From a phage: DNA of 64,000 nucleotides. The translations under genes and the position numbers were made by a program. A model generated the notes under the pieces. It was given only the letters and a program-made list of their open reading frames with translations. It had not been told where the DNA came from and searched no databases. How positions within the stretch are numbered: the stretch's first letter is position 1; each line of letters begins with the position of its first letter. The stretch lies in the sequence record NC_100372.1, one strand, 5' to 3'. Below, one piece after another: positions 5,454 to 64,000 of this stretch.

Positions 5454-6010
5454 GAAAGAAAGCTGTCAAAGCCCCCGTTCATAGCGGGTGGCTAAAAGAT
5501 TCTAAGGACATAGCTAACTTTCGGAAAGAATTGTCAGAAGAGCAGGATGGTCTTGATCCGATCTTGTGCGAACCACTTCGTAAGCCTTGTTTAGATCATG
5601 ATCATCTGACTGGTCGTTGCAGGGGTGTTTTGTCCCAATGCACTAATACCTTTGAGGGGTATGTGCTTAAATACTGGATGAAATACTGTAACGAGTATAC
5701 AGATTGCAGTTTATCAGAGGCGTTACGCCGGATGGCTGACTATCTGGAGAAAGACTACAGCGACTTCCCGCTCCACAAAAACTACAGAGATGATATGACA
5801 AAGTTCTTGAGGAGATGCTCTAAAGCTACGATTATTGCACGTGCAGAATCAGATCTCGGTCTTGTCATTAATTCAGAGTATACCAAGCATGAGGCTATTG
5901 AGGCCTACATGCAGGAGTTTATAAAGAAAACTGAGGAGAGAGATTTCTATGGGGACGAAAAAGGTATTCAATCCTTGCGATTCAGTTCTGATCAGGATGA
6001 AATACCGTAA
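5405..6010 (+). CDS. Endonuclease VII-like recombination endonuclease
   Basis: CLDHDHLTGRCRGVLSQCTN matches the T4 gp49 zinc/active-site signature (HLDHDH...VRGLLC..CN); start position uncertain. Confidence 0.65.
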   Translation: MDRQGASGGIIAKRKIRKKAVKAPVHSGWLKDSKDIANFRKELSEEQDGLDPILCEPLRKPCLDHDHLTGRCRGVLSQCTNTFEGYVLKYWMKYCNEYTDCSLSEALRRMADYLEKDYSDFPLHKNYRDDMTKFLRRCSKATIIARAESDLGLVINSEYTKHEAIEAYMQEFIKKTEERDFYGDEKGIQSLRFSSDQDEIP

Positions 6011-6170
6011 CTGGAAAGGTGTTGTTGCAGATCGCTGCGTTACTGAGCCTAATTTATGGTTTGGCTCTACAGAGTATCATAAAGAAGAGCAGTGGTTGAT
6101 GCATGCATTTGACGTAGATAAGGGCGAATACCGTGACTTCGCTTTAAAAGACATTCTTCAGTTTTACTAA
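5997..6170 (+). CDS. Hypothetical small protein
   Basis: Short ORF, weak RBS. Confidence 0.3.
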   Translation: MKYRNWKGVVADRCVTEPNLWFGSTEYHKEEQWLMHAFDVDKGEYRDFALKDILQFY

Positions 6171-6182
6171 GGAATCTTAACG

Positions 6183-7166
6183 ATGATGACAAAGTTAACT
6201 CTTGAGCAAATTTTAACACTAAAGCAACAGGGATACACTAATAGACAAATTGCTCGTGAATTTTTAGGGCGTGAGTCGCGTGAGAGCTGGATCCGACTAC
6301 AGCTTAAACGTGCACAAGAGAATATGTCAGAGATTGTAGGAGAGGCAACGGAGCGCTTCCTTGAAGAACACAAAGGCGCTAAAGTTTGGGTGTATGATAC
6401 AGAGACATCCCCAACAAACGGCTGGTTCTTTGGGCACTATAAGACCAACATTCAAACCTGCGGTATTGAAATTATGCCTTATATGCTAACTTTCGCAGGT
6501 AAATGGTTAGACAGCCCTAGTGTGGTCGACTGTGCTCTTCCTGATTACAAAATGTGGGGCGAGGATATCCACAACGATCTTGAACTGATTCAAGATTTGT
6601 GGTATTATCTGGATAAATGTGATGTTGCAGTAGCGCACAACTCTGGTTTTGACTGTGGATGGGCCAACCAACGATTTGCATTTCACGGTTTACCACCAAC
6701 AAGTCCATACAAAGAGGTTGACACCCTCAAGATGATTAAAAAGGCATTCCGTTTGAATGCAAACACGTTAGAGTATGCATGTAAATACTTCCAACTGGCC
6801 CGACAGAAGCTGATTGACCACACATTTGAAATGTGGATCAAGTGTGTTCATGGTGATCTTGAGGCGTTTAAACAGATGCGGGAGTATAATGTTGGGGACA
6901 TCTTGTCTCTTGAAGGCCTGTATTTGCTGGCGCGTCCGTTTGCTAAGCAGCACCCTAACATGTCGTTGTACTACCAAGATGAGGAGTCAAAAGTTCGTTG
7001 CCCACGTTGTGGTGGAGAACACCTTCACGAGGAAGAAGCTTTGGCGTATACTCAGCTGAGTGCATTTAAAACATACCGCTGCGAAGGTTGTGGATCTGTT
7101 GTTCGTGATCGTAACAACATCCGTACTAGGGAAGAGATGAAAAACACCCTTATTCAGATAATCTAA
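6183..7166 (+). CDS. DnaQ-like 3-prime to 5-prime exonuclease with N-terminal HTH and C-terminal zinc ribbon
   Basis: VYDTETS (Exo I-like) and AHNSGFDCGW (Exo II-like) motifs; CPRCGG...CEGCG zinc ribbon. Confidence 0.5.
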   Translation: MMTKLTLEQILTLKQQGYTNRQIAREFLGRESRESWIRLQLKRAQENMSEIVGEATERFLEEHKGAKVWVYDTETSPTNGWFFGHYKTNIQTCGIEIMPYMLTFAGKWLDSPSVVDCALPDYKMWGEDIHNDLELIQDLWYYLDKCDVAVAHNSGFDCGWANQRFAFHGLPPTSPYKEVDTLKMIKKAFRLNANTLEYACKYFQLARQKLIDHTFEMWIKCVHGDLEAFKQMREYNVGDILSLEGLYLLARPFAKQHPNMSLYYQDEESKVRCPRCGGEHLHEEEALAYTQLSAFKTYRCEGCGSVVRDRNNIRTREEMKNTLIQII

Positions 7167-7174
7167 CAAATAGA

Positions 7175-7200
7175 GGGAGGCTTGCGCCTCCCTTTTCCTT
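7175..7200 (+). terminator. Intrinsic terminator (GGGAGGC-TTGC-GCCTCCC + T-run)
   Basis: 7-bp GC stem, tetraloop, TTTTCCTTTT tail immediately after the exonuclease gene. Confidence 0.6.
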
Positions 7201-7211
7201 TTGGAGGCACT

Positions 7212-8018
7212 TTGAGCAAGAAAGAGTCCAACGACAAATATTACACAGACCCCGAGTATGCAGAATATCTTGTTGGTAAAGTAAAAGGTAAGTATGGGAA
7301 TTGTGCATACGTTGAGCCTTCTGCTGGAAAGGGTTCTTTTTCAAAACTATTTTCAGAGATACTGTCGTATGATTTGGTACCAGATCCTGAATTTGAAGGC
7401 CCAACCCCGTGTATTAAGGCAAACTTCTTAGAGGTGTACCCCAAGGCCGATGTATTCATAGGTAATCCTCCATTCGGCAAAAATTCGTCTTTAGCTTGCA
7501 AGTTCTTTAACCACTGTGCATCATTGCTAGAGCCTGGTGGAGCTATAGCCTTCATCTTGCCACGGACTTTTGAAAAAATATTTTTTGCAAACAAACTGGA
7601 CATGTCGATGCACCTTATTTACAGCGAAAGGTGCCCCAAGAACTCGTTTTTACTTAACGGCAAACCTTATGACGTGCCATGTGTTTTCCAAATTTGGGAG
7701 AAAAAGGTGTGCAATAGGGACCCTGTAGAGATCGGGGAGAATAAGTTATTTTCTTTTAGCACACCGGACGATTACGACTTCTGTATAAGACGTGTTGGGT
7801 ATAATGCTGGGAAAGTATTGGGAGAGGATGACCCAAAATCTGAAGAATCAACATATTTCATAAAATCTTTAGTTGATGGTGTTGACAGAGTGTTTGCTGA
7901 GTGCTATTCTTCTTTTCAAGAAGAAGCAGGTAAGACTGCTGGAATGAAGAGTATAGGCAAGAAAGAACTACAATACATTTTGGAGACCAGGTATGATCAA
8001 AAGTATAGACTTGACTAA
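7212..8018 (+). CDS. DNA N6-adenine methyltransferase
   Basis: YYTDPEY, EPSAGKGSF (AdoMet motif I) and GNPPFG (motif IV); start placed at TTG after GGAGG RBS because the track start sits inside the terminator hairpin. Confidence 0.7.
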   Translation: MSKKESNDKYYTDPEYAEYLVGKVKGKYGNCAYVEPSAGKGSFSKLFSEILSYDLVPDPEFEGPTPCIKANFLEVYPKADVFIGNPPFGKNSSLACKFFNHCASLLEPGGAIAFILPRTFEKIFFANKLDMSMHLIYSERCPKNSFLLNGKPYDVPCVFQIWEKKVCNRDPVEIGENKLFSFSTPDDYDFCIRRVGYNAGKVLGEDDPKSEESTYFIKSLVDGVDRVFAECYSSFQEEAGKTAGMKSIGKKELQYILETRYDQKYRLD

Positions 8019-8451
8019 AGAGCTTACTGATGCAAAAGCTTTTGGTGAGACAGCTGTGCAAAGGGGGCAGGCTATGGGGCTGGCACTACCTTTTGTCTTA
8101 AAAGAGCATTTTACAGATTTTCAGCTTATCCGTGGTGAAAAGGGGATGCTTATTCTGGAGCATAAGCTGAGTAAGAAACGTTATAAAGTTGTTTTTAATT
8201 CTAAAGCTCCAACAAAACTTGGATTCAGAACTTACAATCTCAACCCTTCTTATACTAAGGGTGTTGGAAGAGTGGAACAGCAACATCTCAGTGCTAGAGC
8301 TTCTTTAGCCCCTTTGATGCTAAATTTCTCAGGTGTTGCTTTGGGATACCTGGATAAGAAAAGAGTTCTTCATGTTCGTTTTACAGACTTCGTAACGCTT
8401 TTAGCTAACAACGAAGTAGATGAAAAGGGACGTGTAAAAACAAACTTCTAA
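7993..8451 (+). CDS. Hypothetical protein
   Basis: ORF in operon context. Confidence 0.5.
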   Translation: MIKSIDLTKELTDAKAFGETAVQRGQAMGLALPFVLKEHFTDFQLIRGEKGMLILEHKLSKKRYKVVFNSKAPTKLGFRTYNLNPSYTKGVGRVEQQHLSARASLAPLMLNFSGVALGYLDKKRVLHVRFTDFVTLLANNEVDEKGRVKTNF

Positions 8452-8466
8452 TAACGTGCAGTATGA

Positions 8467-8670
8467 TTGGAGACCGCAATGACACCAGAGTTAACAATTC
8501 CAGACAGCTTTTCAGAAAGCTTTATCCCAGAAATGATGAAGAAGATGCAATCACTGCTTGATCAGATTGAGGAGGCTGTTTGGGAAGACGATGCTGTAGT
8601 AGCTAACGAGCTGGTAGATAAGTGTAAAAGTATTATTGATGCAATTGAAGAATACCACGGAGGTTTTTAA
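8467..8670 (+). CDS. Hypothetical small acidic protein
   Basis: ORF with GGAGACC RBS. Confidence 0.45.
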   Translation: METAMTPELTIPDSFSESFIPEMMKKMQSLLDQIEEAVWEDDAVVANELVDKCKSIIDAIEEYHGGF

Positions 8671-9272
8671 TGGATATTATTGTTCTTAATGCTCCACCAA
8701 GTTCTGGAAAAGACCATATCGCAGATCTTTTGTTGGAAGCCATTCCAAACTCGCATCACCGCGAGGTAAAGGAAATGCTATTCAGTGTGGCAATTAAGGC
8801 AGCGGGTATTTCACCACAGTTGTGGAATGCACTCTATGATCGCCGCTACAAAGAAGAACCGTGCCCGTTCTTAATGATAGACGGCAAGCATGTTTCTCCG
8901 CGAGAATGGATGATCCATTGTAGTGAAAATCTGATTAAACCTATCTTTGGTGAAGACGCTTTCGGTAAGGCCGCAGTCGCATCCTTGAAGAAAGATTTCC
9001 CTGAAGGTAAAGGGGTTGTTGTTTACTCCGATGGTGGCTTCAAAGAGGAGCTGGCATGCCTTGGCGAGTACGCATACAGCACAGGTGGCGATCTTCTACT
9101 GTTCCGTATCCACCGTGCAGGATATGATTGGGGAAATGATTCCAGAACTTACCTTAGCCTAGAGAAGAACGGGATAAAAGGTATCGAGTTTGATGTTGTT
9201 AACCCTGAGGGGTCTCCTTGGGAGTGCGCATCTGAGATTGTGTGCAAGTATATTGATGCTAAAGAGGTCTGA
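8670..9272 (+). CDS. Deoxynucleoside monophosphate kinase-like protein
   Basis: N-terminal VLNAPPSSGKD P-loop-like segment resembling T4 gp1 LSGVKRSGKDT. Confidence 0.5.
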   Translation: MDIIVLNAPPSSGKDHIADLLLEAIPNSHHREVKEMLFSVAIKAAGISPQLWNALYDRRYKEEPCPFLMIDGKHVSPREWMIHCSENLIKPIFGEDAFGKAAVASLKKDFPEGKGVVVYSDGGFKEELACLGEYAYSTGGDLLLFRIHRAGYDWGNDSRTYLSLEKNGIKGIEFDVVNPEGSPWECASEIVCKYIDAKEV

Positions 9273-9277
9273 GAACA

Positions 9278-9871
9278 ATGCTGATCGGAATTGATGTAGA
9301 TTTAACACTGGTAGACTCAGGAACAGCATGGTGGGAGTGGCTAGAGCGTTTATATGGTCCAGCCAGCAAGACAGTCGCTAAACCTTCTAACGGACTGATG
9401 TATTACGATCTGTCAAAGTATTGGCCTGATCGCCCCAAAGAAAACATCATAGGGCCTTTTGATTTCTGGAGTGACCCGTTCCTCTACGACTTTCTTAAGC
9501 CTGAAGAGGGGGCTATTGAGGTTATGAAAGATTTGGTGGCTCGTGGTCACAAGCTTGCATTTATCTCTGTATGCAAGAAAGGTCACCTTGCATCTAAATC
9601 AAGGTTCTTAAAGCGTTGGACCAGCGATTTTATGGATCTGGACGATCACACCCAGGGTCACGGCTTCTACGCCACACATTTCAAAGGTAATGTGGCTGTA
9701 GATGTTATAATTGACGACAGACATGAATACCTGAACCAATTCGCTTCACGCCCTGAAGTTATTAAAATCTTAAAAGACACTCCTTATGAGCAATTCGAGG
9801 AGTTGAAGGTCAGTGTTGACTATACCACCAATAGTTGGTATAAAATAGGAAAGTTTTTAGAAGGTATTTGA
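9278..9871 (+). CDS. HAD-superfamily phosphatase (5-prime deoxyribonucleotidase-like)
   Basis: N-terminal IGIDVDLT fits HAD motif I DxDxT. Confidence 0.5.
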   Translation: MLIGIDVDLTLVDSGTAWWEWLERLYGPASKTVAKPSNGLMYYDLSKYWPDRPKENIIGPFDFWSDPFLYDFLKPEEGAIEVMKDLVARGHKLAFISVCKKGHLASKSRFLKRWTSDFMDLDDHTQGHGFYATHFKGNVAVDVIIDDRHEYLNQFASRPEVIKILKDTPYEQFEELKVSVDYTTNSWYKIGKFLEGI

Positions 9872-9872
9872 A

Positions 9873-10073
9873 ATGGGCAGATGTTCTAAAGGTGGCGATC
9901 CTGTAGTCAGATACGGTGACTGGCTAGAGGTATATGATCTTGGAGGTAAGCTAGTGTATGCCTCCAGGATCACCCAAGACATGTGCTCTGATATGTTTAA
10001 CAGATACCTTGCATTTAAGGCCAACATAAACCCAGACGAAATTTCCAAAATTAAAACAAGGAGAGCTAAATAA
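9873..10073 (+). CDS. Hypothetical protein
   Basis: ORF, start/stop coupling. Confidence 0.45.
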   Translation: MGRCSKGGDPVVRYGDWLEVYDLGGKLVYASRITQDMCSDMFNRYLAFKANINPDEISKIKTRRAK

Positions 10074-11056
10074 TGCTAAAACTGTGCACTGCAAAGATTA
10101 TTGCCGACAGCATTTCCGAGAAAGGTAAGCGTATCACCACTTTTGAGCTAGAGTATCCTCGAATTATTCACTCAGAGCTTATGACACATCGAGTGTTCAG
10201 CCGAAACGCCATGTCTTCTCGTGCAGTTCCTGTCGGTAAGATGCTACAGCAGATCGTGGAGAATCCGGCAATGCCAGTTCGCTTCGGTGTAAATAAGCGA
10301 GGGATGGAAGATGGTGGGGAACACGATCAAAAGATCCGTGTAGAGTATACCGACATGGAGTTAACTCCTGAAGAGTTTTGGAAAGAAGCTGCAAAAAACG
10401 CCGCGTGGCATGCAGAGAAGTTCGCCCTTGCTGGTTACCATAAGCAAGTATGTAATCGCTTAGTGGAGCCGTTTCAGCGCATGAAAACAGTTGTAACAAG
10501 CACCGAGTGGAATAATTTTTTCCATCTGCGTTGCTGGCACGATGCTGATCCTACGATTCAGATGCTGGCTAATTGTATGTGGGATGCTCTTATGAATAGC
10601 ACTCCTGAAACCCTTAAACCAGGCCAATGGCACACCCCATATGTAGAGCACGTTTATTTGGACGGTGAGTTTAACTATGCCGTGCGTGACACAGAAGGGA
10701 AGCTATGCATTCTCGATACTGGAGAAGCTCTATCTATTAGTGCGAGCTGCTGTGCACAAGTATCTTATCGCAATATTGACAGCACGTTTGAAAAAGCAGA
10801 TAGTGTGGCTAAAAAATTGATTGGTGGGGATCGTATTCATGCAAGCCCTTACGAGCACCAGGCGACACCTATGGATCACGATAATGCAATGGAACGTTTA
10901 AACTACTACCTGTCTTCATGTGAAATCACACAAGATAGTTGTGTTTGGCAGGAAGGTGTAACCCATCAAGACCGTGATGGTAAATTCTGGTCTGCCAACT
11001 TTTGTGGGTGGGTTCAGCACAGACAGTTGCTTAATAACCACTTCATGAAAGGGTAA
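10073..11056 (+). CDS. Flavin-dependent thymidylate synthase (ThyX-like)
   Basis: THRVFSRNAMSSRA resembles the ThyX RHR-x7/8-S signature; longer than typical ThyX. Confidence 0.5.
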   Translation: MLKLCTAKIIADSISEKGKRITTFELEYPRIIHSELMTHRVFSRNAMSSRAVPVGKMLQQIVENPAMPVRFGVNKRGMEDGGEHDQKIRVEYTDMELTPEEFWKEAAKNAAWHAEKFALAGYHKQVCNRLVEPFQRMKTVVTSTEWNNFFHLRCWHDADPTIQMLANCMWDALMNSTPETLKPGQWHTPYVEHVYLDGEFNYAVRDTEGKLCILDTGEALSISASCCAQVSYRNIDSTFEKADSVAKKLIGGDRIHASPYEHQATPMDHDNAMERLNYYLSSCEITQDSCVWQEGVTHQDRDGKFWSANFCGWVQHRQLLNNHFMKG

Positions 11057-11085
11057 GCCTATCACAGCGATAGGTAACTTTTGTG

Positions 11086-11114
11086 TTGACTAATAGCATT
11101 AGATAATCTATAAT
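11086..11114 (+). promoter_or_regulatory. Sigma70-like promoter (TTGACT-17-TATAAT)
   Basis: 5/6 -35, perfect -10, 17 bp spacer. Confidence 0.55.
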
Positions 11115-11154
11115 AGTGGCTCACTTTGTTGGTGAGCCAGAAAGGGAGACAGAT

Positions 11155-11616
11155 ATGAGTGATGTTATGATTCCTAAAAAGACATTTATTTCAGTTACTT
11201 TAGATTTCCTATCTACCGTTCCTGGGTTTAACGTTCGCACACGAAACGGTCTTCGAGCTGCACTCTTTGCCGTAGGGTTTGATTTAAAAAATATTGATGT
11301 TCTTCGTGGAAAAAACGTTAGATGCAAAAATAAACCAACTCATTATCGAAAGGCCGATGTATTTGCTGGTGTCATGCGTGCAGACTTTAGATACCCACAA
11401 ATGTATAATGGTGTAGATATTCTAGATGTAGATAAAGCACCCGGTGAGACAATGCTTGTTCAAGATCTTCCGTATGATATCCCCGTAGAGGATCGTGTCA
11501 ATGTAAGAAAGTATACAAAACAATCTGAAAAGGCTGAAGATATTCATATTGTTGATGAACCTTTCAATTTTGAAGATCTGCATCGCCTGGAAAAATTATT
11601 CGGTATTGAAAGCTAA
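11155..11616 (+). CDS. Hypothetical protein
   Basis: ATG after AGGGAGAC RBS; track ORF start at 11116 would precede the predicted transcript start. Confidence 0.5.
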   Translation: MSDVMIPKKTFISVTLDFLSTVPGFNVRTRNGLRAALFAVGFDLKNIDVLRGKNVRCKNKPTHYRKADVFAGVMRADFRYPQMYNGVDILDVDKAPGETMLVQDLPYDIPVEDRVNVRKYTKQSEKAEDIHIVDEPFNFEDLHRLEKLFGIES

Positions 11617-11626
11617 GGTGGTGAAG

Positions 11627-11857
11627 ATGAGTCATAACTCCAAGTGGAAGGATCTTGGTTTTGCAAGTCGGGCAGAATATGTTGGTTGGCTTTGGTTCAA
11701 TGGCCTGACAAACGATATTAAAATGTATGATGATGTTTATTATGACGAGTATACAGGTAAAATTATAAATATCTCTGTAGAAGAGGATACCTTTACCCAA
11801 CAAGATACTGATACCTGCCTTGATAAATACGTTGATGAAGTGGAGGAAGCAAATTGA
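11627..11857 (+). CDS. Hypothetical protein
   Basis: ATG after AAGGTGGTG RBS. Confidence 0.45.
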   Translation: MSHNSKWKDLGFASRAEYVGWLWFNGLTNDIKMYDDVYYDEYTGKIINISVEEDTFTQQDTDTCLDKYVDEVEEAN

Positions 11858-14169
11858 TCACCAAGGTAATTAAAAGCAACGGATGTGAAGTAGCATTCGA
11901 TCCGGAACGTTTAAATAAGGCAGCTATTTTCGGTGACGACGGTAACGGCAATTGGTCACATATTGCACTTGATGCATACAAACGGCTGTATGATGGATGC
12001 ACAACCAAAGAAGTTAACCAAGCTATTATAGACTCCTGTGTTAGCCGTAAGGACGAAGCACATTCTCGTATGGCTGGTCGTGTTCTTATCGGTCAGATTT
12101 ATAAAGAGGCTTTTGGAGGATTCACAAAGATCCCTTCCTTACCATCATTTTACAATACCATGGTTGATAAAGGGTATTGGGAGGATATGGGCTATAGCTT
12201 TACCGAGTTAAACACTTTAGACACTGTTATTGATCACAGTAAAGACCTTGGTTATGGCTATGCAGTCCTTAAACAGTTTCGAGACAAATACGGGATCAAG
12301 GATACTCTTAAAGACACCCTGTTCGAATCTCCACAGATGATGTTTATGGGGATAGCGATGGCTGTCATGAAAAATATGCCGAAAGAACGCCGTATTGACG
12401 ATGTTGTAAAATTATACACTTATCTGTCAGACTTAAAGATCAATGCCCCGACACCGTACTTAAACGGTCTACGCACAGGCAAGACAGGGTATGCATCTTG
12501 TTGTGTAATAAAAGCTGACGATACAGCAAAATCTATTGGTGTGGCACGTGAAGTTGCATACACAATGACGGTTAACCAAGCAGGTATTGGCTACTATTTA
12601 TCATCAAGATCTGCAGGTGATGGTGTTCGTGGTAACACTATTAAACATATGGGCAAGATTCCATATTATCGAGGTATTGATGCTGGAGTTAAGGAGAACA
12701 GACAACAATCACGTGGCGGTTCTGCAACAGTATCATTCCTTGCACTGGACCCGCAGATTGATGAGCTAATCCGTTTGAGAAACCCTATGACTGTTGCTTC
12801 AAAAAGAATCAACACCATGGACTACTCTATAGGTATTAATAGGTCGTTTATCAACCGTGTGGCTAAGAATTTAGATTGGATGCTTGTTTCTTATAAGCAC
12901 GCTCCTCAACTGCATGAGGGTATCTTCACCATGTCTATGGAGGAGTTTGATGCAGAGGTTGATCGTATCGCTAAAGATGACAGTATTCCTAAAACATGGA
13001 TCCGAGCTAGAGATCTTGCTGTTGAGCTGATCACTCAGCGTACCGAGGTTGGAAGGCTGTACGTATACTGGACAGATGAGATGAATAGACATACACCTTT
13101 TAAAGATGTAATCTATTCAAGTAACCTGTGTGCAGAAATAGCCCTCCCGACAAAAGGCTATTCAGATATGCGTAATATCTTCAAGTACGATGTTGATGAT
13201 GGCGAAGTTGCATTGTGCTTCCTGTCATCTCTTGTAGCCGGAAGGGTTACCCCAGAGGAGTATGAGGATGTTGCATACTACACGGTGCTTATGATTGACA
13301 ATGTTATGGAAATCATGACATATCCGTATGAAAATATGGAGAGCACTGTTAAAAAACGCAGATCCATTGGGGTTGGCCTTACTAATGTTGCACATTTTAT
13401 TGCCAGCCACAAGGTTACTTACGGATCTCCTGAAAGTAAACAGCTTGTTCACGATCTTGCAGAACTTCACAGCTACAGCTTGCATAAGGCAAGTTTACGA
13501 TTGGCAAAAGAGCGTGGTGTCTGTGAGTGGATGCATAAAACAAAATACCCGGAGGGTTGGTTACCAATCGACACCTATAACAAAGAGGTCGATAGTGTGG
13601 TGAAAGATCCTTCTCTTAAGCAGGATTGGGAAGGGTTACGTAAAGAAATCATTGAAAATGGTGGGCTACGTAATAGCGTTCTTGAAGCATATATGCCTAA
13701 TGAAAGCTCTTCGCTGGCAACAAACACCACTAACGGGGTTTATCCTGTCCGTGAACACATTATCTTTAAAAAGTCACCACAAGGGCAGGTGCTGTTTATC
13801 GTTCCTGAATATGATGAACTGAAAGAGTATTATACCTCGGCTTGGGACGTTGATACTAGCGACATGATTGATATGTATGCTGTGATTCAAAAATTCACAG
13901 GACAGGCAATCAGTGCTGACCTATATATTGATTACACCAAGTTGAAAGATGGTAAAATTTCAATGAAAGAGCAGCTGGGGTATCTTATCCGTGCTACTAA
14001 ATTCGGGATGAAGACATGGTATTACTTAAACTCTCGGGTTGGTGCTGGTGACTCTTTGACAGAGGAGCTTCACGCGAAGAAACAGGCTGAAGATGAAACC
14101 AGAAAGAACTATCCTTTGATTGCAGATAGTTCAGTTGAAGATCCGTATTGCGAAAGTTGTGCACTGTAA
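11854..14169 (+). CDS. nrdA: Ribonucleoside-diphosphate reductase large subunit (class Ia)
   Basis: ATP-cone N-terminus (VIKSNGCEVAFD), active-site NLCAEIALP, C-terminal CxxC tail. Confidence 0.95.
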   Translation: MITKVIKSNGCEVAFDPERLNKAAIFGDDGNGNWSHIALDAYKRLYDGCTTKEVNQAIIDSCVSRKDEAHSRMAGRVLIGQIYKEAFGGFTKIPSLPSFYNTMVDKGYWEDMGYSFTELNTLDTVIDHSKDLGYGYAVLKQFRDKYGIKDTLKDTLFESPQMMFMGIAMAVMKNMPKERRIDDVVKLYTYLSDLKINAPTPYLNGLRTGKTGYASCCVIKADDTAKSIGVAREVAYTMTVNQAGIGYYLSSRSAGDGVRGNTIKHMGKIPYYRGIDAGVKENRQQSRGGSATVSFLALDPQIDELIRLRNPMTVASKRINTMDYSIGINRSFINRVAKNLDWMLVSYKHAPQLHEGIFTMSMEEFDAEVDRIAKDDSIPKTWIRARDLAVELITQRTEVGRLYVYWTDEMNRHTPFKDVIYSSNLCAEIALPTKGYSDMRNIFKYDVDDGEVALCFLSSLVAGRVTPEEYEDVAYYTVLMIDNVMEIMTYPYENMESTVKKRRSIGVGLTNVAHFIASHKVTYGSPESKQLVHDLAELHSYSLHKASLRLAKERGVCEWMHKTKYPEGWLPIDTYNKEVDSVVKDPSLKQDWEGLRKEIIENGGLRNSVLEAYMPNESSSLATNTTNGVYPVREHIIFKKSPQGQVLFIVPEYDELKEYYTSAWDVDTSDMIDMYAVIQKFTGQAISADLYIDYTKLKDGKISMKEQLGYLIRATKFGMKTWYYLNSRVGAGDSLTEELHAKKQAEDETRKNYPLIADSSVEDPYCESCAL

Positions 14170-22796: not shown

Positions 22797-23030
22797 ATGA
22801 AAGTTAAATTTCTTACAGATTTAGGGTACCCTTCCTTGGTTGACTGCGTTGGTAAAATTGTGGAAGCAAAACGGCTATCTGCAAACGATAATGTTGTCAT
22901 GGTTAAGGGAAAAGATTTACTAGCTGCAGGTGCAGAGTCTGGCAGGATCTCTCCTGACTATACGTATTACCTGTCTTTAAGTAATCTACCAGAACGAGGC
23001 GGCAAAGGCCTTGAAGTTGTGGAGGAGTGA
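22797..23030 (+). CDS. Small acidic paralog-family protein
   Basis: AGGAGG RBS; MKVKFL N-terminus, VKGKDLLAAGA motif, C-terminal EVVEE. Confidence 0.5.
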   Translation: MKVKFLTDLGYPSLVDCVGKIVEAKRLSANDNVVMVKGKDLLAAGAESGRISPDYTYYLSLSNLPERGGKGLEVVEE

Positions 23031-23572
23031 CAGGTATGCTTCTGATTAACTGGGAAGACCTCTATGGGGACAAAGACCCTGTTGCGTTTGTTGATCGTAG
23101 GTGGAGGTACACTGAAGAACAACTGGCTGCAAAAAATTTAACTGCAAAACGCAGAAAGATCATCCAGTGCAAGTACAAATACGCACAGTTTGCTGCAAAA
23201 GTGTCTCCACAAATCGAGAGTTTTGTACTTAAATTGTATGACGAGTACCTCAAATTCAAATTGGATTTTGTACAGGTATACCGTGCACAGGTACGTCCAG
23301 ATACCAACATCTGTAGATGGAAGGTTGTTTGTGATGGTAAAGATTTGCCGCTCAGTTTGACAATTGAGTGGCGTTGGGGGTATCATGAGTGCGGTTTGTA
23401 TGATATTTGGGATGTCATTGTAGATCCTGCTAAGTACCTGAACACAGAGGAGCTGGAATATATCAATAAGGTTATTCTAGATATGTTTTTCAGCTACACC
23501 CATGAAAACTCTGAGAAAGAACGGGATAATTTTCTTGACACCCTCGGCAACCACCTGCAGTGTACAATTTAA
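23027..23572 (+). CDS. Hypothetical protein
   Basis: ORF in operon. Confidence 0.5.
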   Translation: MTGMLLINWEDLYGDKDPVAFVDRRWRYTEEQLAAKNLTAKRRKIIQCKYKYAQFAAKVSPQIESFVLKLYDEYLKFKLDFVQVYRAQVRPDTNICRWKVVCDGKDLPLSLTIEWRWGYHECGLYDIWDVIVDPAKYLNTEELEYINKVILDMFFSYTHENSEKERDNFLDTLGNHLQCTI

Positions 23573-53763: not shown

Positions 53764-54044
53764 TGATCTGTCTCCTTCTTGTTGAGCCGGAACACTGCAA
53801 TAATAGCATTTCCAAGATGCAGTGTCAAATCATTCCCCAGATACCATAACATTCCACGGTCATCTTTGATGAAAGGATAACAATCCGGTGCTTTCCAGAC
53901 ATTATACACTTTGCCGACCTGAAAGAAATCAGGCCCTGTTGGAATTTTAGTACCGGGCCACACTTGAGACACCTGAACGCACTCTACCTGCATAATGACA
54001 GGGATAGTCATAGAAGTAAATGTTTTTGTTGGTTCTACTACCAT
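53760..54044 (-). CDS. Small paralog-family protein
   Basis: DDRGMLWYLGNDLTLHLG; start at MVVEPT after AGAGGAGAC RBS. Confidence 0.45.
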   Translation of the reverse strand: MVVEPTKTFTSMTIPVIMQVECVQVSQVWPGTKIPTGPDFFQVGKVYNVWKAPDCYPFIKDDRGMLWYLGNDLTLHLGNAIIAVFRLNKKETDQ

Positions 54045-54093
54045 AAAAGTCTCCTCTCTGTCTAACAACACTTCCGTGTGTTGATAGTTTACA

Positions 54094-56871
54094 TTAGTGA
54101 CAATCGCCCCAGTTACGACCGCACAAGTATTCACCTGTGATCTGGAACGGAACGCCCATCATTTTAGAAGCCTGCCAGAAGCAATGCACCACCATTTCGC
54201 CCACAGGGCTCCAGATAAGTTCAAGCTTTCCGTCATCGTTCAAGATAGGATCGTATACCGTATTTCCGTCCTTGTCAACCACTTCGTTTCCGTCCTCATT
54301 TTTGCGTGCCTTTTTGTACTTATGACCGTCGAACACATGAAGTTTAGCCTCTTGTTGGGCTTTAAATGTTTCCAGCTCTTCAATTGTGTCGAAGGTGTAT
54401 ACAGTTTTATACTTAGGGGTGTCAGGCACTTGAAGCTGATATTCGTCATGGTAATAAATAATACGACGAACACCTTCATCATACCATCCACGCTTCACCA
54501 TTTGGTGGTGCATGAGGATTCCGACCAAGTCGCACAACGATGCACCGCCATTTTGCTGATATGCATTAAGCAAAGAGTGTTTAGAGCGGGTCCAAATGGC
54601 ATGCCCGTCAAAAGAGTAGATAAATTTCTTACCTGTTGCTTCCCAGAATTTCTCCAGATCCTCTTTGCGCCCCTTAAGACCTGGGTTGGCATCCCAGAGA
54701 GCATCAATTACTCTCTGCCCCAGTTCTGGAGAGATATCCAGCATATCTGCAACTTTATCTTTTTGTGCCCCATACATAACCCCATACGTGATAGGTTTAC
54801 CATCGTTACGAGACACCTCTCTACCTGCTACTTTTGTATATGCCTCAGCATTGTTTTGGTGCGCGTCCCCGTTACTTACAACATCATAATACAGACCGTT
54901 GTCAAACTCAAAGGCACCCCAGGCCCCGATGAGCTGCTCTAAGTTGGACCCGTCAATACCGATCTCAAAGTATCCAGGAGGAACACCCCACAGACTACGC
55001 ATCTCTTTACCCATAACCACTTTAGGAGATGGTTTAGGCATGTTTGCACAAATACTATGTTTCTGTCTGGAAGTGTTTGTTAATCCAGAACTTTTAGCAG
55101 GAAGCTTGTGGTCAATCTTCAAACGTGGATGATTAAGAAGACCAGTATCTACCTTATCTTCCTTGATTGGATCAAGGACCGATCTGCGGTTTCGCAATGA
55201 TAACCACAAAACGATATCTTTAGCCATCTCTCCGTTCAATTTTTCAAGATTCGGGCACAGGTGTCCAAACGTATCTTTCAGTTGCGGAGAAGTAATAAGC
55301 GCTCTGGCTTTTCTACGTATCTTCCCAAACACTTCCTTTTTAATCCTTTCTGAGTTAGGGAAGCTTCGGAACTTGTGCACGGTTGTCTGGAACTTAGCAT
55401 CGGTTTTGTTCCAGAAGTTGATAATCAGGTCACAATACTCTGACTCTAAAAGCTCGTCCATATATGCATATACTCGTGCATCAACATCTGCATCAGGTAG
55501 AGCTTTCTTCTTGCTGTCTTTAGTTACATCCTTAGTTCTCCACATTGTCGGAAGCCAACCAGCACTGATCAGGTATCGCTTAATGTCGTCCTGGTTGCTG
55601 ATTTTCATAGGTATCTTGCAGTCCGGCATTCGCTTCTGCTGTAGATCACTTATTGCCTGATCCATTAGCTCTTTAGGTAAAGGTTGTGGTGTGGAGGTGC
55701 CCTTAATATAGCCTCTCAAGAAATCAGCCATCTTATCGGGGTCTTTGCAGCCCATCTCTTCACACCATTTTATCCCCATCTTGCTGACATCTCCTGTGGA
55801 GGTAAATGCTCGCTTAGGCGGGGCTTTGAACTCTAAAGCGCTCATGTCCACAGGATAGCCAAGCTTATCTTTTAACCATTTCCAACCATTATTGGAGATT
55901 GTCCCATCTTGGTTAAACGGCTTTTCAGGGAACTTGGGCCGCTGAGACATTGACAACTCTTTTAAAGGAAGTTGAGGTTCAACACGATCAGCGATCTCTT
56001 TCATCCACGCATCGCAACGGTCCCGTAAAGCAATAGCCCCATCTATGTCGAAATACACCCCCTGTCGAGCCTGCAGCTCCATCAGAAAGTGCTGTAACAT
56101 GCCTCGGCGTAATGCGTTCTTCCAGGTGATTTTCTTGAAGCCTTTCGGCTTCTCTTTGGCAGGATCGTACATAAAGTTCTGCATGTCAGATTTGCCGTAG
56201 AATACACCTTTTGATTCCGCTACCAACTCCTTCCAGAGCAACTCCTGGATGATAACGTCCTCGAACACACGATCCACATACTTCCACAGAGGAAGCTCAC
56301 GCCAGTCATCGATTTGAACTTTCTGGTTACCAAGGGCATAGCCCCATGCCATAAGGCCATGAGGTCCAACAGGTTGCATTTTCTTGGTAACTGGATTAAA
56401 TACTGCGTCCGGACAACCTTTTGGCAAAGGGCGGTCAGGCCACAAGATTCGACTCATTGCTAACGTATCGAACAGATTAACCTGGTGGTCGTTGATAGTC
56501 CCCATGCATTTAGGATCACGGAACATATCAAAATGAATACCGGATAATCTCTCCATCAGCATAAAGTCGTAGCTGTAGCAGTTATGACAGTTCAAAGCTG
56601 TAGGTGACCAGTCTGAGTTGCCTGTAAGCCAGCCTTCCAACTCTGAAAAATCTGCTATGCGAGCCTCAAAATCTGTATAAAGGGTCTTCTTTGCCAGAAT
56701 GAAGTTCTTAGCTTTCTCCACATCCTCTTCAGAGTAGTGTGTGCGGTCATTTAGAGGAAGGAACAGCATAAAACGGTTCTTATTCAGCTCTTTAAACAAA
56801 CCGCAGTGATAATAAAGATCTGGGTCTTCCAGCAGGCCAGAGGCCTCAAAATCGAACGACCACATGCTCAT
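54094..56871 (-). CDS. Family A DNA polymerase with N-terminal 3-prime to 5-prime exonuclease domain
   Basis: Exo I FDFEASG; motif B KPITYGVMYGAQ; motif C YYHDEYQLQV. Confidence 0.85.
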   Translation of the reverse strand: MSMWSFDFEASGLLEDPDLYYHCGLFKELNKNRFMLFLPLNDRTHYSEEDVEKAKNFILAKKTLYTDFEARIADFSELEGWLTGNSDWSPTALNCHNCYSYDFMLMERLSGIHFDMFRDPKCMGTINDHQVNLFDTLAMSRILWPDRPLPKGCPDAVFNPVTKKMQPVGPHGLMAWGYALGNQKVQIDDWRELPLWKYVDRVFEDVIIQELLWKELVAESKGVFYGKSDMQNFMYDPAKEKPKGFKKITWKNALRRGMLQHFLMELQARQGVYFDIDGAIALRDRCDAWMKEIADRVEPQLPLKELSMSQRPKFPEKPFNQDGTISNNGWKWLKDKLGYPVDMSALEFKAPPKRAFTSTGDVSKMGIKWCEEMGCKDPDKMADFLRGYIKGTSTPQPLPKELMDQAISDLQQKRMPDCKIPMKISNQDDIKRYLISAGWLPTMWRTKDVTKDSKKKALPDADVDARVYAYMDELLESEYCDLIINFWNKTDAKFQTTVHKFRSFPNSERIKKEVFGKIRRKARALITSPQLKDTFGHLCPNLEKLNGEMAKDIVLWLSLRNRRSVLDPIKEDKVDTGLLNHPRLKIDHKLPAKSSGLTNTSRQKHSICANMPKPSPKVVMGKEMRSLWGVPPGYFEIGIDGSNLEQLIGAWGAFEFDNGLYYDVVSNGDAHQNNAEAYTKVAGREVSRNDGKPITYGVMYGAQKDKVADMLDISPELGQRVIDALWDANPGLKGRKEDLEKFWEATGKKFIYSFDGHAIWTRSKHSLLNAYQQNGGASLCDLVGILMHHQMVKRGWYDEGVRRIIYYHDEYQLQVPDTPKYKTVYTFDTIEELETFKAQQEAKLHVFDGHKYKKARKNEDGNEVVDKDGNTVYDPILNDDGKLELIWSPVGEMVVHCFWQASKMMGVPFQITGEYLCGRNWGDCH

Positions 56872-56929
56872 ATACAGTTCTCCTTAAAGGGGAGGCGGTT
56901 GTACTACCCCTCCCACTCTTGGTTAAACA

Positions 56930-59008
56930 TTAAAAAGGTGTTTCGTCGTCTTCAAAACCAGGAACGTGGTTAGAGGACGGATCATCATACTGAAGATCTT
57001 CCTGTGTGTCAACAGGGTTAACAGCAGGGGTTATAACCTTATCAGCCACAACCTTGCCCACAGGTGTTTCTACAACTGCATGCTCCTGATCCTCAAACAT
57101 AGCCTGAGGTCTCCAAACAACCTCCCCACCTTCCCCATCTGTAAACATCTGCATTTCTTTGTCCCAGTACCAGTTGCTGGCATCATGGAACTTGCCTGTG
57201 TGGGGATCCATAACTAGAGTGTCTGCAATACCTAAGGTTTTTGCTGGGCGGTTTTTAAGACCTACCAGTCGGACACGTCCACGGGAACGATCCACCATCT
57301 CCTCTGCCTCTACCCCGACAACCACCCAGCTAAGTTGCTCCAATCCGGCACTACCGCGAAGGTTCTCTTTTCGTACAGGGTACCAGAAAGGTAACGGATT
57401 TCCATCCTTATCCTTCGGAGGTACAATCTCTGTGCGCTTCAGGTGAGCAATCACCAAGATAAACACATTAAACTGCTTACAGAACGCGGCTAGTTGAGTC
57501 ATAGCCATGTCAAGTTCTTTGCGCTCATCCTTAACATTAAGCCCTGAAATCACCATAGACAAGTGATCCAGCACAATGTAACGGCAGTGATACAGGCACA
57601 CCATTTGTTTAAGCTTAGTGATCAGCTCATCTACAGGAATGGAGCCGAAATGCTTGAACACTTTGATTTTTCCGGCCTTGGCCCAAGATTGATGAATCTC
57701 AGCGTGCTCCTGATCGGTCAGGAACTGACTGGGGTCTTCAACAAACTCTTTAACATCAAACCCCAGCTGGTTAGCGTACAGAGAGTTGATTGCTTCCTCA
57801 GGATCCTCTTCAAGGTGAATCAGGCACAGGCGATCATCCTCTTCATAATCATCAGCTTTAGGGCATGTTGGATCCATCAAGTATCTTGCAATGCAATGTT
57901 CCAGCTTCTTGGCTACAGTTGTTTTACCACCGCCAGACGGGCCTGTCAGCATCATCAAGGTGCCTTTGTGGAGTCCTTTCAGCATCTTCTGCAGTTTAGG
58001 GAACTCTGCACTAATATCCACGCCATTGGAAGTCTTCTTACGAAGAGATTCAATGGAGAAGTCTTCTAAATCAGATACAGCATCAGGCACATATTTGACT
58101 GGGTGACGGAACATGTTGACAATATCTTCCAGCTTTTTAGCCTTCAGCATGTCACGAATATCTTTTACACCATCAGGGTCGTTTACCTCACCTGGGTATT
58201 CCACGTGGTAAACGTTGTCAGCCATCAAAAATGCTGCGATATTATGCGTAGCTTCAACACCTTTGATAACGTGTTTTTGCTTCTCTACCTCGTTAGCTGC
58301 ATCGTTGTCCATTGCAAGGACTACTGTTCCGTAGCTACGGATAAATTTCTCATTGTTCGCAAAAGTGTCTACGGCGTTTGCACACCCGCAGTTAATTCCG
58401 ACAAAAGGCAGGCATGGTTTTCCTGCCAGATCACCGCCGTTGATAACTGCATCAATCCCATCCTGGACTTCTTTAGCCCACTGCTTCACCTTCGCCGGGG
58501 CTTTAGCATTGGTGAGAATTCCTTTTACTTGTACCTGATATGCAGCCTGCCACGCTGCAATAACATCTCCTTCCCCCTCACAAACGTTAATCTGCTTGCG
58601 GTTGTTGGAGGATGCACACAGCTTTTGACCAAACATCTGGGAGTTGGCCTTTACTATGCCGACAACCGAGAAATGGCCCCTTTGCTCTTTAGGGATTGTC
58701 CAGTCACGCTTTTTAAAGCCAGATAGATTACCGTAGCGGTCATAATACGGAAAGTAGGTGGCAGTAACAGTTACGCCATCCTCTTGGGATAGCGATGATC
58801 GTACACCAAAATATTGTGCAGCCATCAGTCCAATATTTTGTTGTGGAACAGGGACAATTTTAGTGTTTTCTAAAACAGTCTCCACAGTTTCAACTTCTTT
58901 TTCATCACGATAGTCTCGTTTCACACTTCCCCCACTTTTATACTTAGTTGCTTTCGGGTTTGGCTCACCGAAACGGTTGTATGCAGATGCCATGAATTTA
59001 CTGCCCAT
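56930..59008 (-). CDS. DNA primase/helicase fusion (TOPRIM primase + DnaB-like helicase, T7 gp4-like)
   Basis: TOPRIM VCEGEGD and VLAMDNDAANE; Walker A TGPSGGGKTT; Walker B VLDHLS; start at ATG after AAGGAGAAG RBS. Confidence 0.8.
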   Translation of the reverse strand: MGSKFMASAYNRFGEPNPKATKYKSGGSVKRDYRDEKEVETVETVLENTKIVPVPQQNIGLMAAQYFGVRSSLSQEDGVTVTATYFPYYDRYGNLSGFKKRDWTIPKEQRGHFSVVGIVKANSQMFGQKLCASSNNRKQINVCEGEGDVIAAWQAAYQVQVKGILTNAKAPAKVKQWAKEVQDGIDAVINGGDLAGKPCLPFVGINCGCANAVDTFANNEKFIRSYGTVVLAMDNDAANEVEKQKHVIKGVEATHNIAAFLMADNVYHVEYPGEVNDPDGVKDIRDMLKAKKLEDIVNMFRHPVKYVPDAVSDLEDFSIESLRKKTSNGVDISAEFPKLQKMLKGLHKGTLMMLTGPSGGGKTTVAKKLEHCIARYLMDPTCPKADDYEEDDRLCLIHLEEDPEEAINSLYANQLGFDVKEFVEDPSQFLTDQEHAEIHQSWAKAGKIKVFKHFGSIPVDELITKLKQMVCLYHCRYIVLDHLSMVISGLNVKDERKELDMAMTQLAAFCKQFNVFILVIAHLKRTEIVPPKDKDGNPLPFWYPVRKENLRGSAGLEQLSWVVVGVEAEEMVDRSRGRVRLVGLKNRPAKTLGIADTLVMDPHTGKFHDASNWYWDKEMQMFTDGEGGEVVWRPQAMFEDQEHAVVETPVGKVVADKVITPAVNPVDTQEDLQYDDPSSNHVPGFEDDETPF

Positions 59009-59792: not shown

Positions 59793-59808
59793 CCTTTCGG
59801 GCAGGGCC
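59781..59808 (-). terminator. Intrinsic terminator with GAAA tetraloop, near-identical to the one at 49632
   Basis: GCCCUGCCC-GAAA-GGGUGGGGC + UUUUU on the minus strand; coordinates may be off by 1. Confidence 0.6.
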
Positions 59809-59813
59809 TAGTG

Positions 59814-60296
59814 TTAAACCCGGATACCTATTGTATACTCGGTGGATACCAATGTCAAATCTAAATTTAAAATTTCTTGCATCTCATAGTATGCATCCAG
59901 AGTGAGATACATTTCCCCATCCTCTTCTACATACTTGTCGAGATGTTTGAGGCACTTTGGATAACTATCAAGGGCAGCTTTTAAGCACTCAAACTCCGTG
60001 CTGTTGATGAATCCTTCCATCTTAGCTACCCGTTCTGGAGTAACAATAGCACTGTAGTGAGATTTAGCTTCCTGAATGCAATGGGTCCAAGCATCAACTT
60101 TCTCTTCAAAAAGCCCGAAGAATTTCTTTTTGGTGAGTTTCAGATTTTTTAAGTGCTTAAGCACTCGGTTGCCGATTACAGCCACATCACGAAACTTAAA
60201 GATAACTTTGTCGATATCCTCGCGGCCTATTTTCACAAAGCAGGCCTTGCACATCTCGGGAGCAGCGTAGCCTACCTTCCACATAAAATCTGACAT
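59814..60296 (-). CDS. Hypothetical protein
   Basis: ORF; start verified as ATG. Confidence 0.5.
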   Translation of the reverse strand: MSDFMWKVGYAAPEMCKACFVKIGREDIDKVIFKFRDVAVIGNRVLKHLKNLKLTKKKFFGLFEEKVDAWTHCIQEAKSHYSAIVTPERVAKMEGFINSTEFECLKAALDSYPKCLKHLDKYVEEDGEMYLTLDAYYEMQEILNLDLTLVSTEYTIGIRV

Positions 60297-60308
60297 AACA
60301 CTCTCTCC

Positions 60309-61006: not shown

Positions 61007-61031
61007 CGTTTGGTGCTCTCCTCAGTTTTGT

Positions 61032-61062: not shown

Positions 61063-61076
61063 ATACTCACATCTTA

Positions 61077-63990: not shown

Positions 63991-64000
63991 CTTGGTCTCC

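Follow-up and report, generated by a model that had tools for sequence, protein, structure and literature searches.

Host Dam of E. coli is an alpha-class DNA methyltransferase (MTase) of about 278 aa, host Dcm a PF00145 enzyme of 472 aa that has a complete target-recognition domain. No GTAC methylase is known from E. coli K-12. A phage counterpart of one of the genes described here is bas51_0176 of phage WalterGehring (Bas51). This MTase is the trigger of the retrons Asa1 and Squ1 (PLoS Biol 2025, PMC12548924). Mutation of D69, D79 or T83 (D69G, D79G, T83P) abolishes retron triggering (PMC12548924). Nanopore sequencing yielded 1405 m6A positions at GATC in wild-type Bas51 and 35 in the T83P mutant, whereas m6A at GTAC is independent of this enzyme (509 vs. 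511 positions; PMC12548924). Another phage enzyme, Dcm of the Drexlerviridae phages K42 and KarlJaspers, triggers retron Ec86, and K42 Dcm generates 5mC at CCWGG on the msDNA of this retron (bioRxiv 10.1101/2023.08.16.553469). In Helicobacter pylori, the small gamma-class enzyme M.HpyAXII is able to make GTm6AC (PMC2588503).

The window, as the whole 64,000-nt stretch analysed here is called, is a segment of the genome of a Vequintavirus (rV5-like) E. coli phage, a myovirus. Over 6 kb it is 99.8% identical to phage ECP26, and there are 122 related records. It contains three stand-alone MTase genes, designated P1, P2 and P3 (Table 1). They lie where an earlier note on this DNA had placed them and carry the NPPF and NPPY motifs that it had read in P1 and P2. 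Among all 129 six-frame window ORFs of at least 100 aa, the pattern [DNS]PP[YFW] occurs only twice, in P1 and P2, which means that these motifs are not due to chance. In Pfam and NCBIfam scans, all three proteins stay below the curated cut-offs. Therefore, their classification rests on PHROGs, PADLOC, profiles, folds and the literature. The HMM classification that had been proposed as a check assigned P1 to phrog_5172 and PADLOC MTase_II, P2 to phrog_799 and P3 to phrog_757. The division into two N6-adenine and one C5-cytosine DNA MTase was borne out by PHROG, PADLOC, Foldseek and the similarity of P3 to KarlJaspers Dcm. Overall, the three stand-alone SAM-dependent MTases probably modify the phage's own DNA at short sites. 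As GenBank annotations for the three genes exist in more than 100 related phages and part of their biology has been characterised, the finding is real but ordinary.

Table 1. Positions of the three MTase genes and of two further features in the window
Feature	Position	Strand	Description
P1	7212-8018	+	predicted gamma-class (TaqI/Eco57I-like) N6-adenine DNA MTase, NPPF motif, orphan; alternative upstream TTG start at 7182
P2	21272-21805	+	177-aa mini Dam-like N6-adenine DNA MTase, NPPY motif, GATC specificity, orphan
P3	58998-59792	-	predicted short Dcm-like C5-cytosine DNA MTase, minimal target-recognition region, orphan; probable site CCWGG
Empty site of fourth MTase gene	61007-61076		70 nt between window genes 60704-61006 and 61077-61418
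152-aa ORF (phrog_9938)	7993-8451	+	26-nt overlap with the 3' end of P1

The NPPY motif of the 177-aa protein P2 occupies residues 84-87; T83, N84, P85 and P86 are invariant in 34 homologues. P2 matches phrog_799 (DNA methyltransferase) at 5.1e-67 and is only weakly similar to PF05869 (19.2 vs. a cut-off of 28.1 bits) and TIGR01712 (16.1 vs. 97 bits). Motif I is atypical, with EPCRNSASG instead of EPxxGxG. P2 is the same protein as bas51_0176 (177 of 177 residues identical) and is encoded at the same place, after the gene for a ClpP-like protease. D69, D79 and T83 are present in P2 and absent from P1, P3 and the fourth MTase that Bas51, in contrast to the phage of the window, encodes in addition (see below). 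The Bas51 genome has 703 GATC sites with 1406 adenines, 1405 of which are methylated in the wild type, so that the Bas51 enzyme accounts for practically all GATC m6A of the virion DNA. Going by its identity to this enzyme with published activity, P2 makes m6A at GATC. With the phage mini-Dam family (PF05869 Dam; TIGR01712 phage_N6A_met) it has in common the length of about 170 aa, the (N/D)PPY motif and the lack of a separate target-recognition domain; one P2 relative is recorded with PF05869. E. coli Dam has the same GATC target, but lineage and architecture are unrelated. Kinship to the T1-type Dam of KarlJaspers was considered and rejected, as there is no useful similarity.

P3 is 264 aa long when translated from its GTG start, relatives being annotated about 10 residues shorter, and its gene shares 14 nt with the start of the primase/helicase gene. 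The C5-MTase motifs are found in the expected form: FDGSGG at 27-32 (motif I), PPC at 97-99 with Cys99, ENP at 145-147 with Glu145, R156 and IRSLTPRG at 237-244 (motif IX). A homologue search returned 4176 proteins; residues C99, E145, N146, P147, R156 and K192 are invariant, with C99, E145 and R156 checked in 29 homologues. P3 matches phrog_757 (DNA methyltransferase) at 6.3e-87. The Pfam scan gave no PF00145 match for P3 itself; two relatives, P0053 with 24.7 bits and P0066 with 28.5 bits, exceed the 22-bit PF00145 cut-off, with the N-terminal 100 residues only. In a Foldseek search of the PDB with the AF2 model (pLDDT 88.1), the best 50 of 59 matches (E <= 0.001) are all DNA methyltransferases, namely 49 DNMT3A/3B and one putative prophage DNA modification methyltransferase; the best E is 9e-7 at a TM-score of only about 0.5. 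The predicted fold is that of a DNMT3-like C5-MTase. A large target-recognition domain is absent from P3 (about 80 residues separate R156 from motif IX), as is the GNAV motif (motif X), and Asn instead of Glu/Asp occupies the usual motif II position.

P3 is 97.6% identical to bas51_0074 and, over the full length, 54% identical to Dcm of KarlJaspers (Bas06; bas06_0055; E 2e-86). The catalytic residues C82, E128 and K175 of K42 Dcm align with C99, E145 and K192 of P3. K42/KarlJaspers Dcm and P3 have the same short C5-MTase layout (about 236-264 aa), a DNMT3-like fold and the same minimal target-recognition region. They differ in that P3 is longer at its N-terminus by about 17-20 residues, originates from a different phage family and carries Ile193 where K42 Dcm has K176. 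By analogy to these enzymes, P3 most likely makes 5mC at CCWGG. This probable target would be shared with E. coli Dcm, to which P3 is unrelated in lineage and architecture. At 54% identity, the specificity of P3 may differ from that of KarlJaspers Dcm.

Are all three enzymes functional? It could be argued that one or more of the genes are catalytically dead or unexpressed and mere relics: all three proteins score below the curated Pfam/NCBIfam cut-offs, motif I of P2 reads EPCRNSASG and not EPxxGxG, and P3 has Asn in motif II and lacks the normal target-recognition domain. This is very improbable, since a protein identical to P2 is demonstrably active and so is a 54%-identical homologue of P3 that shares its short layout. 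In addition, P1 and P3 have catalytic residues that do not vary among hundreds to thousands of homologues, and all three proteins are 95-100% identical across more than 100 phage genomes.

The P1 ORF extends from a TTG at 7182 to 8018. The downstream start at 7212 is a second TTG in the same frame, with GGAGG ahead of it; this start agrees with the N-termini of homologues (MSKK..DQYYT), and the AF2 model (pLDDT 90) is disordered before about residue 16. In the 278-aa form, NPPF occupies residues 95-98. P1 is 96.3% identical to bas51_0200 of Bas51. Its family matches are phrog_5172 (2.6e-125) and PADLOC MTase_II (PDLC03255; 6.8e-33), the latter with residues 18-263 aligned to model positions 2-249 of 269. 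The conserved motifs appear in the order DxYYT, EPSAGxG, D-x-x-P, GNPPFG and VPCVFQIW. In P1, the gamma-class motifs are DKYYT at residue 18, EPSAGKG at 45-51, D64 and GNPPFG at 94-99, and they are invariant in 30 homologues. The score for PF07669 Eco57I is below the cut-off (17.6 vs. 25.3 bits) and the NCBIfam scan gave no match; PF26055 is precomputed on many P1 homologues. In cellular genomes, a restriction-enzyme-like gene is located directly downstream of the P1 homologue in 21 of 80 loci, and this partner matches PADLOC REase_II at 5e-10. In phages, the homologues are located in replication modules. Judged by its motifs and family matches, P1 is a predicted gamma-class adenine MTase from a type II restriction-modification lineage.

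Like M.TaqI and the Eco57I-like gamma class, P1 has an N-terminal x-x-T-P, EPxxGxG and, about 50 residues on, (N)PP(F/Y), and its catalytic domain is similar to that of M.TaqI by profile and fold. P1 is shorter than these enzymes and M.HpyAXII (268-278 vs. 331-421 aa), and its C-terminal domain is unmatched in solved structures. Since no H. pylori locus was found among the genomic relatives of P1, it is not an orthologue of M.HpyAXII. A Foldseek search of viral models with P1 yielded no named enzyme with a known site. The same holds for the partner restriction-enzyme family, which has no significant match in the PDB and thus no link to a solved enzyme with a known site.

The structure searches also raised the idea that P1 is an RNA (rRNA/tRNA) amino-methyltransferase of the METTL5/Ta1320/TrmN kind and that the GTAC m6A of its relatives is made by the fourth MTase, which is present in Bas51, the source of the GTAC data. 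The family profile of P1 finds Ta1320 (1ne2) as best PDB match (5e-5), ahead of TaqI (0.045) and METTL5 (0.17). With the P1 model, Foldseek retrieved TrmN, M.TaqI, M.BseCI and CamA from the PDB at E of about 1e-7 to 1e-8, with TrmN, a tRNA methyltransferase, on top. Furthermore, the name 'predicted RNA methylase' is given to some homologues from metagenomes, and one homologue passes Pfam RrnaAD. But the matches to RNA enzymes are limited to the Rossmann core, some 180 residues common to both kinds of enzyme, whereas the REBASE-style type II DNA MTase model is matched over its full length, including a C-terminal domain missing in RNA enzymes. The restriction-enzyme-like gene downstream of cellular homologues in 21 of 80 loci points to DNA as substrate, too. 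Together with the type III Mod-like character of the fourth MTase, this makes the RNA-enzyme proposal improbable.

A DNA-modifying P1 leads to the question of its target. In the Bas51 genome, there are 258 GTAC sites with 516 adenines, 509-511 of which (about 99%) are methylated. Hence, in the published nanopore data, methylation of virion DNA from the near-identical phage Bas51 reaches about 99-100% at both GATC and GTAC, as expected from the heavy self-methylation that the earlier note had predicted. Besides P1 and P2, the single adenine-MTase candidate in Bas51 is the fourth MTase. To our knowledge, all characterised members of the type III Mod family use asymmetric sites and not palindromes like GTAC, which argues against this enzyme. 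P1 is the best candidate, and somewhat favoured by us, for the GTAC m6A of Bas51 that the published study tied to no gene. Avoidance of GTAC was also analysed. Of all 4-bp palindromes, GTAC shows the strongest depletion in loci with the restriction-enzyme partner (observed/expected 0.62); as the same is true of partner-free loci (0.76), this is only a weak hint to the specificity of P1. Nothing usable on RsaI or KpnI digests of rV5-like DNA turned up in the literature. We consider it rather likely that P1 is the GTAC enzyme, an orphan captured from a type II lineage whose cellular members keep their nuclease, and that it contributes to a three-motif methylome together with the Dam-like and the Dcm-like enzyme.

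The fourth MTase gene of most relatives (1.3 kb, 447 aa, PF01555, type III Mod-like) is situated at the site that is empty in the window; at this junction it is annotated in NHEP1 and ECP26. The protein matches Pfam N6_N4_Mtase at 6e-43, and its closest solved relatives are H. pylori Mod and EcoP15I Mod. The gene was found in 87 phage records, and 28 of 116 records have a contiguous junction like that of the window, where the sequence read directly places the flanking genes 70 nt apart. Bas56-59 of the BASEL collection are further Vequintaviruses without this gene. The fourth MTase, present in Bas51 and missing from the window, could make m6A at GTAC instead of P1.

The MTases of the window are orphans, and the window contains no complete type II restriction-modification system. 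When the profile of the P1 partner restriction-enzyme family was run against all six-frame ORFs of the window (64 kb of the roughly 137-kb genome), the best match had an E of 2, and in the relatives no restriction enzyme is annotated. The MTase genes of the window are surrounded by replication and nucleotide-metabolism genes; neighbours of P2 and P3 are the ClpP-like protease, small ORFs of no named function and the primase/helicase. With these neighbours and the failure to match the partner family, the orphan status claimed earlier stands. The idea that the ORF overlapping the end of P1 is its cognate nuclease was rejected as unsupported: hhalign against the partner restriction-enzyme family returned a probability of 0.1%, neither Pfam nor PADLOC matches this ORF, its sequence has no significant hit in the PDB, and in BLASTP against a similarly placed ORF, E was only 0.022.

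What do these enzymes do for the phage? Acting on newly replicated phage DNA, the MTases would each modify a short specific site. P2 would methylate the adenine of GATC, as experimentally demonstrated for the identical protein. P3, using its catalytic Cys-Glu pair, would most likely generate 5mC at CCWGG like its 54%-identical homologue, and P1 would most likely generate m6A at GTAC. The outcome would be near-complete methylation at few motifs, which may block only nucleases of the MboI/DpnII, RsaI/HpyAXII/PabI and EcoRII type and would be no shield against EcoRI, EcoRV, type I or type III systems. Vequintavirinae were found to be 'exceptionally susceptible' to EcoKI, EcoCFT_I, EcoRI, EcoRV, EcoCFT_II and EcoP1_I (Maffei et al., 2021). 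Because of this sensitivity to all six tested restriction-modification systems, any restriction evasion can only be narrow, and the evasion suggested by the earlier note is not supported in a broad form. Protection can cover only enzymes that cut at GATC, GTAC and probably CCWGG. Moreover, some retrons detect such enzymes as infection signals. Since retrons sense them, the MTases carry a cost.

The same susceptibility to all six systems can be read as a sign that the MTases are kept mainly for roles other than restriction, e.g. full Dam-/Dcm-like methylation of the rapidly replicating phage DNA, so that it is handled correctly by the host's MutH-dependent mismatch repair or by those steps of replication, packaging and gene expression that depend on methylation. 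GATC (shown) and CCWGG (probable) copy the sites of host Dam and Dcm. T83P phage retains methylation at only 35 of the 1406 GATC adenines, which means that host Dam has hardly any effect on phage DNA. Conserved copies of the genes occur in about 116-120 Vequintavirus records, inside replication/nucleotide-metabolism modules. Furthermore, the three engineered MTase mutants reached only about 0.2-0.5 times the wild-type titre on a retron-free host (P 0.0006, 0.0011 and <0.0001). By contrast, mutants with inactive P2 are viable and grow to 1-4 x 10^10 PFU/ml in the laboratory. P1 is of restriction-modification ancestry, and GTAC is, as far as we know, not a host methylation site. The role classically ascribed to orphan MTases of phages is anti-restriction (reviewed by Murphy et al., 2013). 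On balance, a mainly non-restriction role is unlikely, though it is to be taken more seriously than an RNA substrate of P1. Methylation of the phage's own DNA, with at most narrow protection, remains the preferred reading.

All three belong to the core genes of a phage genus that has been well sampled, and for one of them genetics and a methylome have been published. If P1 is the GTAC enzyme, the three-motif methylome would shield the phage from a few 4-5-bp cutters and expose it to methylation-sensing retrons. Such a methylome explains why common restriction-modification systems still kill these therapy-candidate phages: it masks no sites other than GATC, GTAC and probably CCWGG. At the same time, the MTases make the phages visible to retrons.

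The three DNA methyltransferase (MTase) ORFs claimed in an earlier note, here designated P1 to P3, are all found in the window (see table), and their assignment to two N6-adenine and one C5-cytosine DNA MTases holds according to profiles, motifs and characterised relatives. Phage-family profiles, not Pfam and NCBIfam, are decisive for the predicted classes: In Pfam and NCBIfam, P1 matches Eco57I/MTS and P2 EcoRI_methylase/Dam at sub-threshold level only, and P3 is without any match. Of the 129 six-frame window ORFs of at least 100 aa, only P1 and P2 contain the motif (D/N/S)PP(Y/F/W), each once. The P1 ORF extends from 7182 (TTG) to 8018. An in-frame TTG at 7212, four bases past GGAGG, is probably the true start because the homologue N-termini (MSKK..DQYYT) agree and the first 16 model residues are disordered.

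Methyltransferase genes and neighbouring features of the window
Feature	Coordinates	Strand	Product	Profile (E-value)
P1	7212-8018	+		phrog_5172 (2.6e-125); phrog_799 (7.8e-14)
ORF of unknown function	7993-8451	+	152 aa	phrog_9938
P2	21272-21805	+	177 aa	phrog_799 'DNA methyltransferase' (5.1e-67)
ORF related to bas51_0171	23027-23572	+		
DNA polymerase	54094-56871	-	925 aa	
P3	58998-59792	-	264 aa, GTG start; relatives' annotation ~10 residues shorter	phrog_757 'DNA methyltransferase' (6.3e-87)
Empty site of fourth MTase, between genes 60704-61006 and 61077-61418	61007-61076	-		
Nucleotide-metabolism and replication block		+		
DNA polymerase, primase/helicase, helicase, rIIB	right end	-		

In a phage database search, the segment 6000-12000 has 122 matching phage records, nearly all Vequintavirus (rV5-like myoviruses); its identity to Escherichia phage vB_EcoM-ECP26 is 99.8%. 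The gene order is that of Vequintavirus genomes. Matches to 6000-12000 and 54000-64000 include 16-20 'Campylobacter phage' records (e.g. MG065654-MG065674) with 90-95% identity; their host labels are probably wrong, or the preparations were contaminated. The DNA polymerase gene is a single unbroken ORF in the window, longer in NHEP1 (3747 nt) and split by a homing-endonuclease insertion in the related phage Bas51 (joined CDS). Therefore, the selfish-element content of the replication genes is variable.

P2 is a Dam-like GATC methyltransferase. In 2025, escape mutants of the BASEL phage Bas51 (Vequintavirinae) against the retrons Asa1 and Squ1 were isolated, all in an 'N6 adenine methyltransferase' that is toxic when expressed alone. 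The engineered substitutions D69G, D79G and T83P abolished defence (PMC12548924). Bas51 is phage WalterGehring (MZ501111), and its protein bas51_0176 is identical to P2 at 177/177 positions. Among the four MTase-like proteins of this phage group, only P2 has Asp69, Asp79 and Thr83, the latter directly before NPPY. According to the source data, wild-type Bas51 carries 1405 methylated adenines at GATC, 509 at GTAC and 576 elsewhere; for T83P, the numbers are 35, 511 and 349 (PMC12548924). By our count, the Bas51 genome has 703 GATC sites with 1406 target adenines and 258 GTAC sites with 516. In wild-type DNA, methylation thus covers 99.9% of the GATC and 98.6% of the GTAC adenines. This bears out the heavy self-methylation proposed in the earlier note. 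T83P almost fully removes GATC methylation and leaves GTAC unaffected, which, with the identity of the two proteins, defines the activity of P2. Since only 35 of 1406 GATC adenines are methylated in T83P, host Dam hardly methylates replicating phage DNA. The ~350 'other' m6A calls that remain in T83P (published S4 Table) could represent the motif of a fourth, type III Mod-like MTase. A second Bas51 escape mutation against Asa1 in the 2025 study is a premature stop in the 'putative glycosidase' bas51_0171, to which an ORF 1.2 kb downstream of P2 is 97% identical.

For P1, neither sequence nor fold of the catalytic core tells DNA from RNA enzymes: The profile search yields Ta1320/METTL5-like proteins (5e-5) and M.TaqI (0.045), and the best matches in the fold search are TrmN, M.TaqI, M.BseCI and CamA. 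The family (832 matches) has the invariant blocks DxYYT, EPSAGxG, GNPPFG and VPCVFQIW in gamma order. The PADLOC model for type II methyltransferases matches along the full length of P1 (6.8e-33). Among 277 confirmed relatives, 80 bacterial and archaeal loci were inspected; in 21 of them, a conserved gene of ~218 aa follows directly downstream (median distance 22 nt) and matches the type II restriction-enzyme model PADLOC REase_II (5e-10). The full-length match and this downstream gene settle the question in favour of a predicted DNA methyltransferase of restriction-modification (RM) descent. The ~218-aa family, with the conserved blocks HGK.FE, FD, PTSIK and LNPKIDS..QRRLQCS, has no Pfam or PDB match, REase_II being its sole match, and probably represents type II restriction enzymes for which there is neither a Pfam model nor a solved structure. 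Phage relatives of P1 are located within replication modules. A profile search found no match to the partner family anywhere in the window. The 152-aa ORF shares 26 nt with the P1 end, an overlap suggestive of coupled translation, and has a loose D42...E55-x-K57 pattern; it was considered as a nuclease and rejected, as no relation to nuclease families or to the partner of cellular P1 homologues was detectable. Therefore, P1 is an orphan here, and the orphan status ascribed earlier to all three MTases is correct.

We know of no GTAC methylase in E. coli K-12, so m6A at GTAC must come from a phage enzyme. Two candidates are left in Bas51: the P1 orthologue (96.3% identity to P1) and the fourth MTase, bas51_0070. 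The latter is a PF01555 protein (6e-43) of 447 aa with DPPF at residue 74, and among solved structures, type III Mod subunits come closest to it (H. pylori Mod, 1e-28; EcoP15I Mod, 1e-23). All characterised members of this family known to us recognise asymmetric sites. P1 stems from a small type II lineage. Near cellular P1 relatives with a restriction-enzyme partner, no 4-bp palindrome is as depleted as GTAC (observed/expected 0.62; 0.76 without partner), a weak signal. Therefore, we lean towards P1 as the enzyme that methylates GTAC. The 1.3 kb gene of the fourth MTase is present in most relatives (87 records) and absent from the window; 28 of 116 records, BASEL Bas56-59 included, have a contiguous junction like that of the window. 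This natural presence or absence could serve to assign methylation motifs.

P3 has more than 4000 homologues of ~230 aa, found in 1503 phage records, among them many Drexlerviridae and Klebsiella siphoviruses. The alignment conserves motif I, the Pro-Cys nucleophile (Cys99), Glu145-Asn-Pro, Arg156 and motif IX, with only ~80 residues where the target-recognition domain would be. Two relatives pass PF00145. The AF2 model (pLDDT 88.1) yields 59 PDB matches at E<=0.001 in Foldseek. Each of the best 50 is a DNA methyltransferase structure: 49 are catalytic domains of DNMT3A/3B, and the other is a putative prophage DNA modification methyltransferase. The top match reaches E 9e-7, with a moderate TM-score (~0.5). 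The BASEL annotation reads 'Dcm-like C5 cytosine methyltransferase'. Dcm of phage K42, a KarlJaspers relative, is encoded by a 711 bp gene, has a DNMT3A-like fold with the key residues C82, E128, K175 and K176, introduces 5mC at CCWGG on retron Ec86 msDNA and triggers Ec86 (2023 preprint). Over the full length, P3 has 54% identity to KarlJaspers Bas06 Dcm (E 2e-86). Its Cys99, Glu145 and Lys192 align with C82, E128 and K175, whereas the second lysine is replaced by Ile193. P3 belongs to this characterised family as a predicted Dcm-like enzyme, and by analogy its site would be CCWGG.

Evasion of host restriction, considered probable in the earlier note, stands only in part. Vequintavirinae are exceptionally susceptible to the six tested RM systems EcoKI, EcoCFT_I, EcoRI, EcoRV, EcoCFT_II and EcoP1_I (Maffei et al., 2021). 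This susceptibility would fit site-specific masking restricted to GATC, GTAC and CCWGG. Neither GATC (359 sites in the window) nor CCWGG (130) is avoided. GTAC is depleted (123 observed, 196 expected), as are several 6-bp palindromes (CGATCG 0 vs 8.5 and TGGCCA 0 vs 7.6 expected), which looks like passive restriction-site avoidance beside methylation. Zero copies, with 5-9 expected, are likewise found for GGGCCC and GGCGCC, and GTAC, CTAG and ACGT reach 0.6-0.76 of the Markov expectation. The MTases also come at a cost, since retrons respond to them: Asa1 and Squ1 to P2, Ec86 to the P3 family. Conceivably, they have a non-defensive role and stand in for host Dam and Dcm on fast-replicating phage DNA; the three engineered MTase mutants reach titres of only ~0.2-0.5 of wild type on a host without retron.

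Neither the earlier observation nor the classification or orphan status is new. Many related genomes list the P1-P3 genes as methyltransferases, and the activity of P2 is already published. The sole additions are that the published retron-trigger enzyme is P2 and the reasoned proposal that P1 may account for GTAC methylation.
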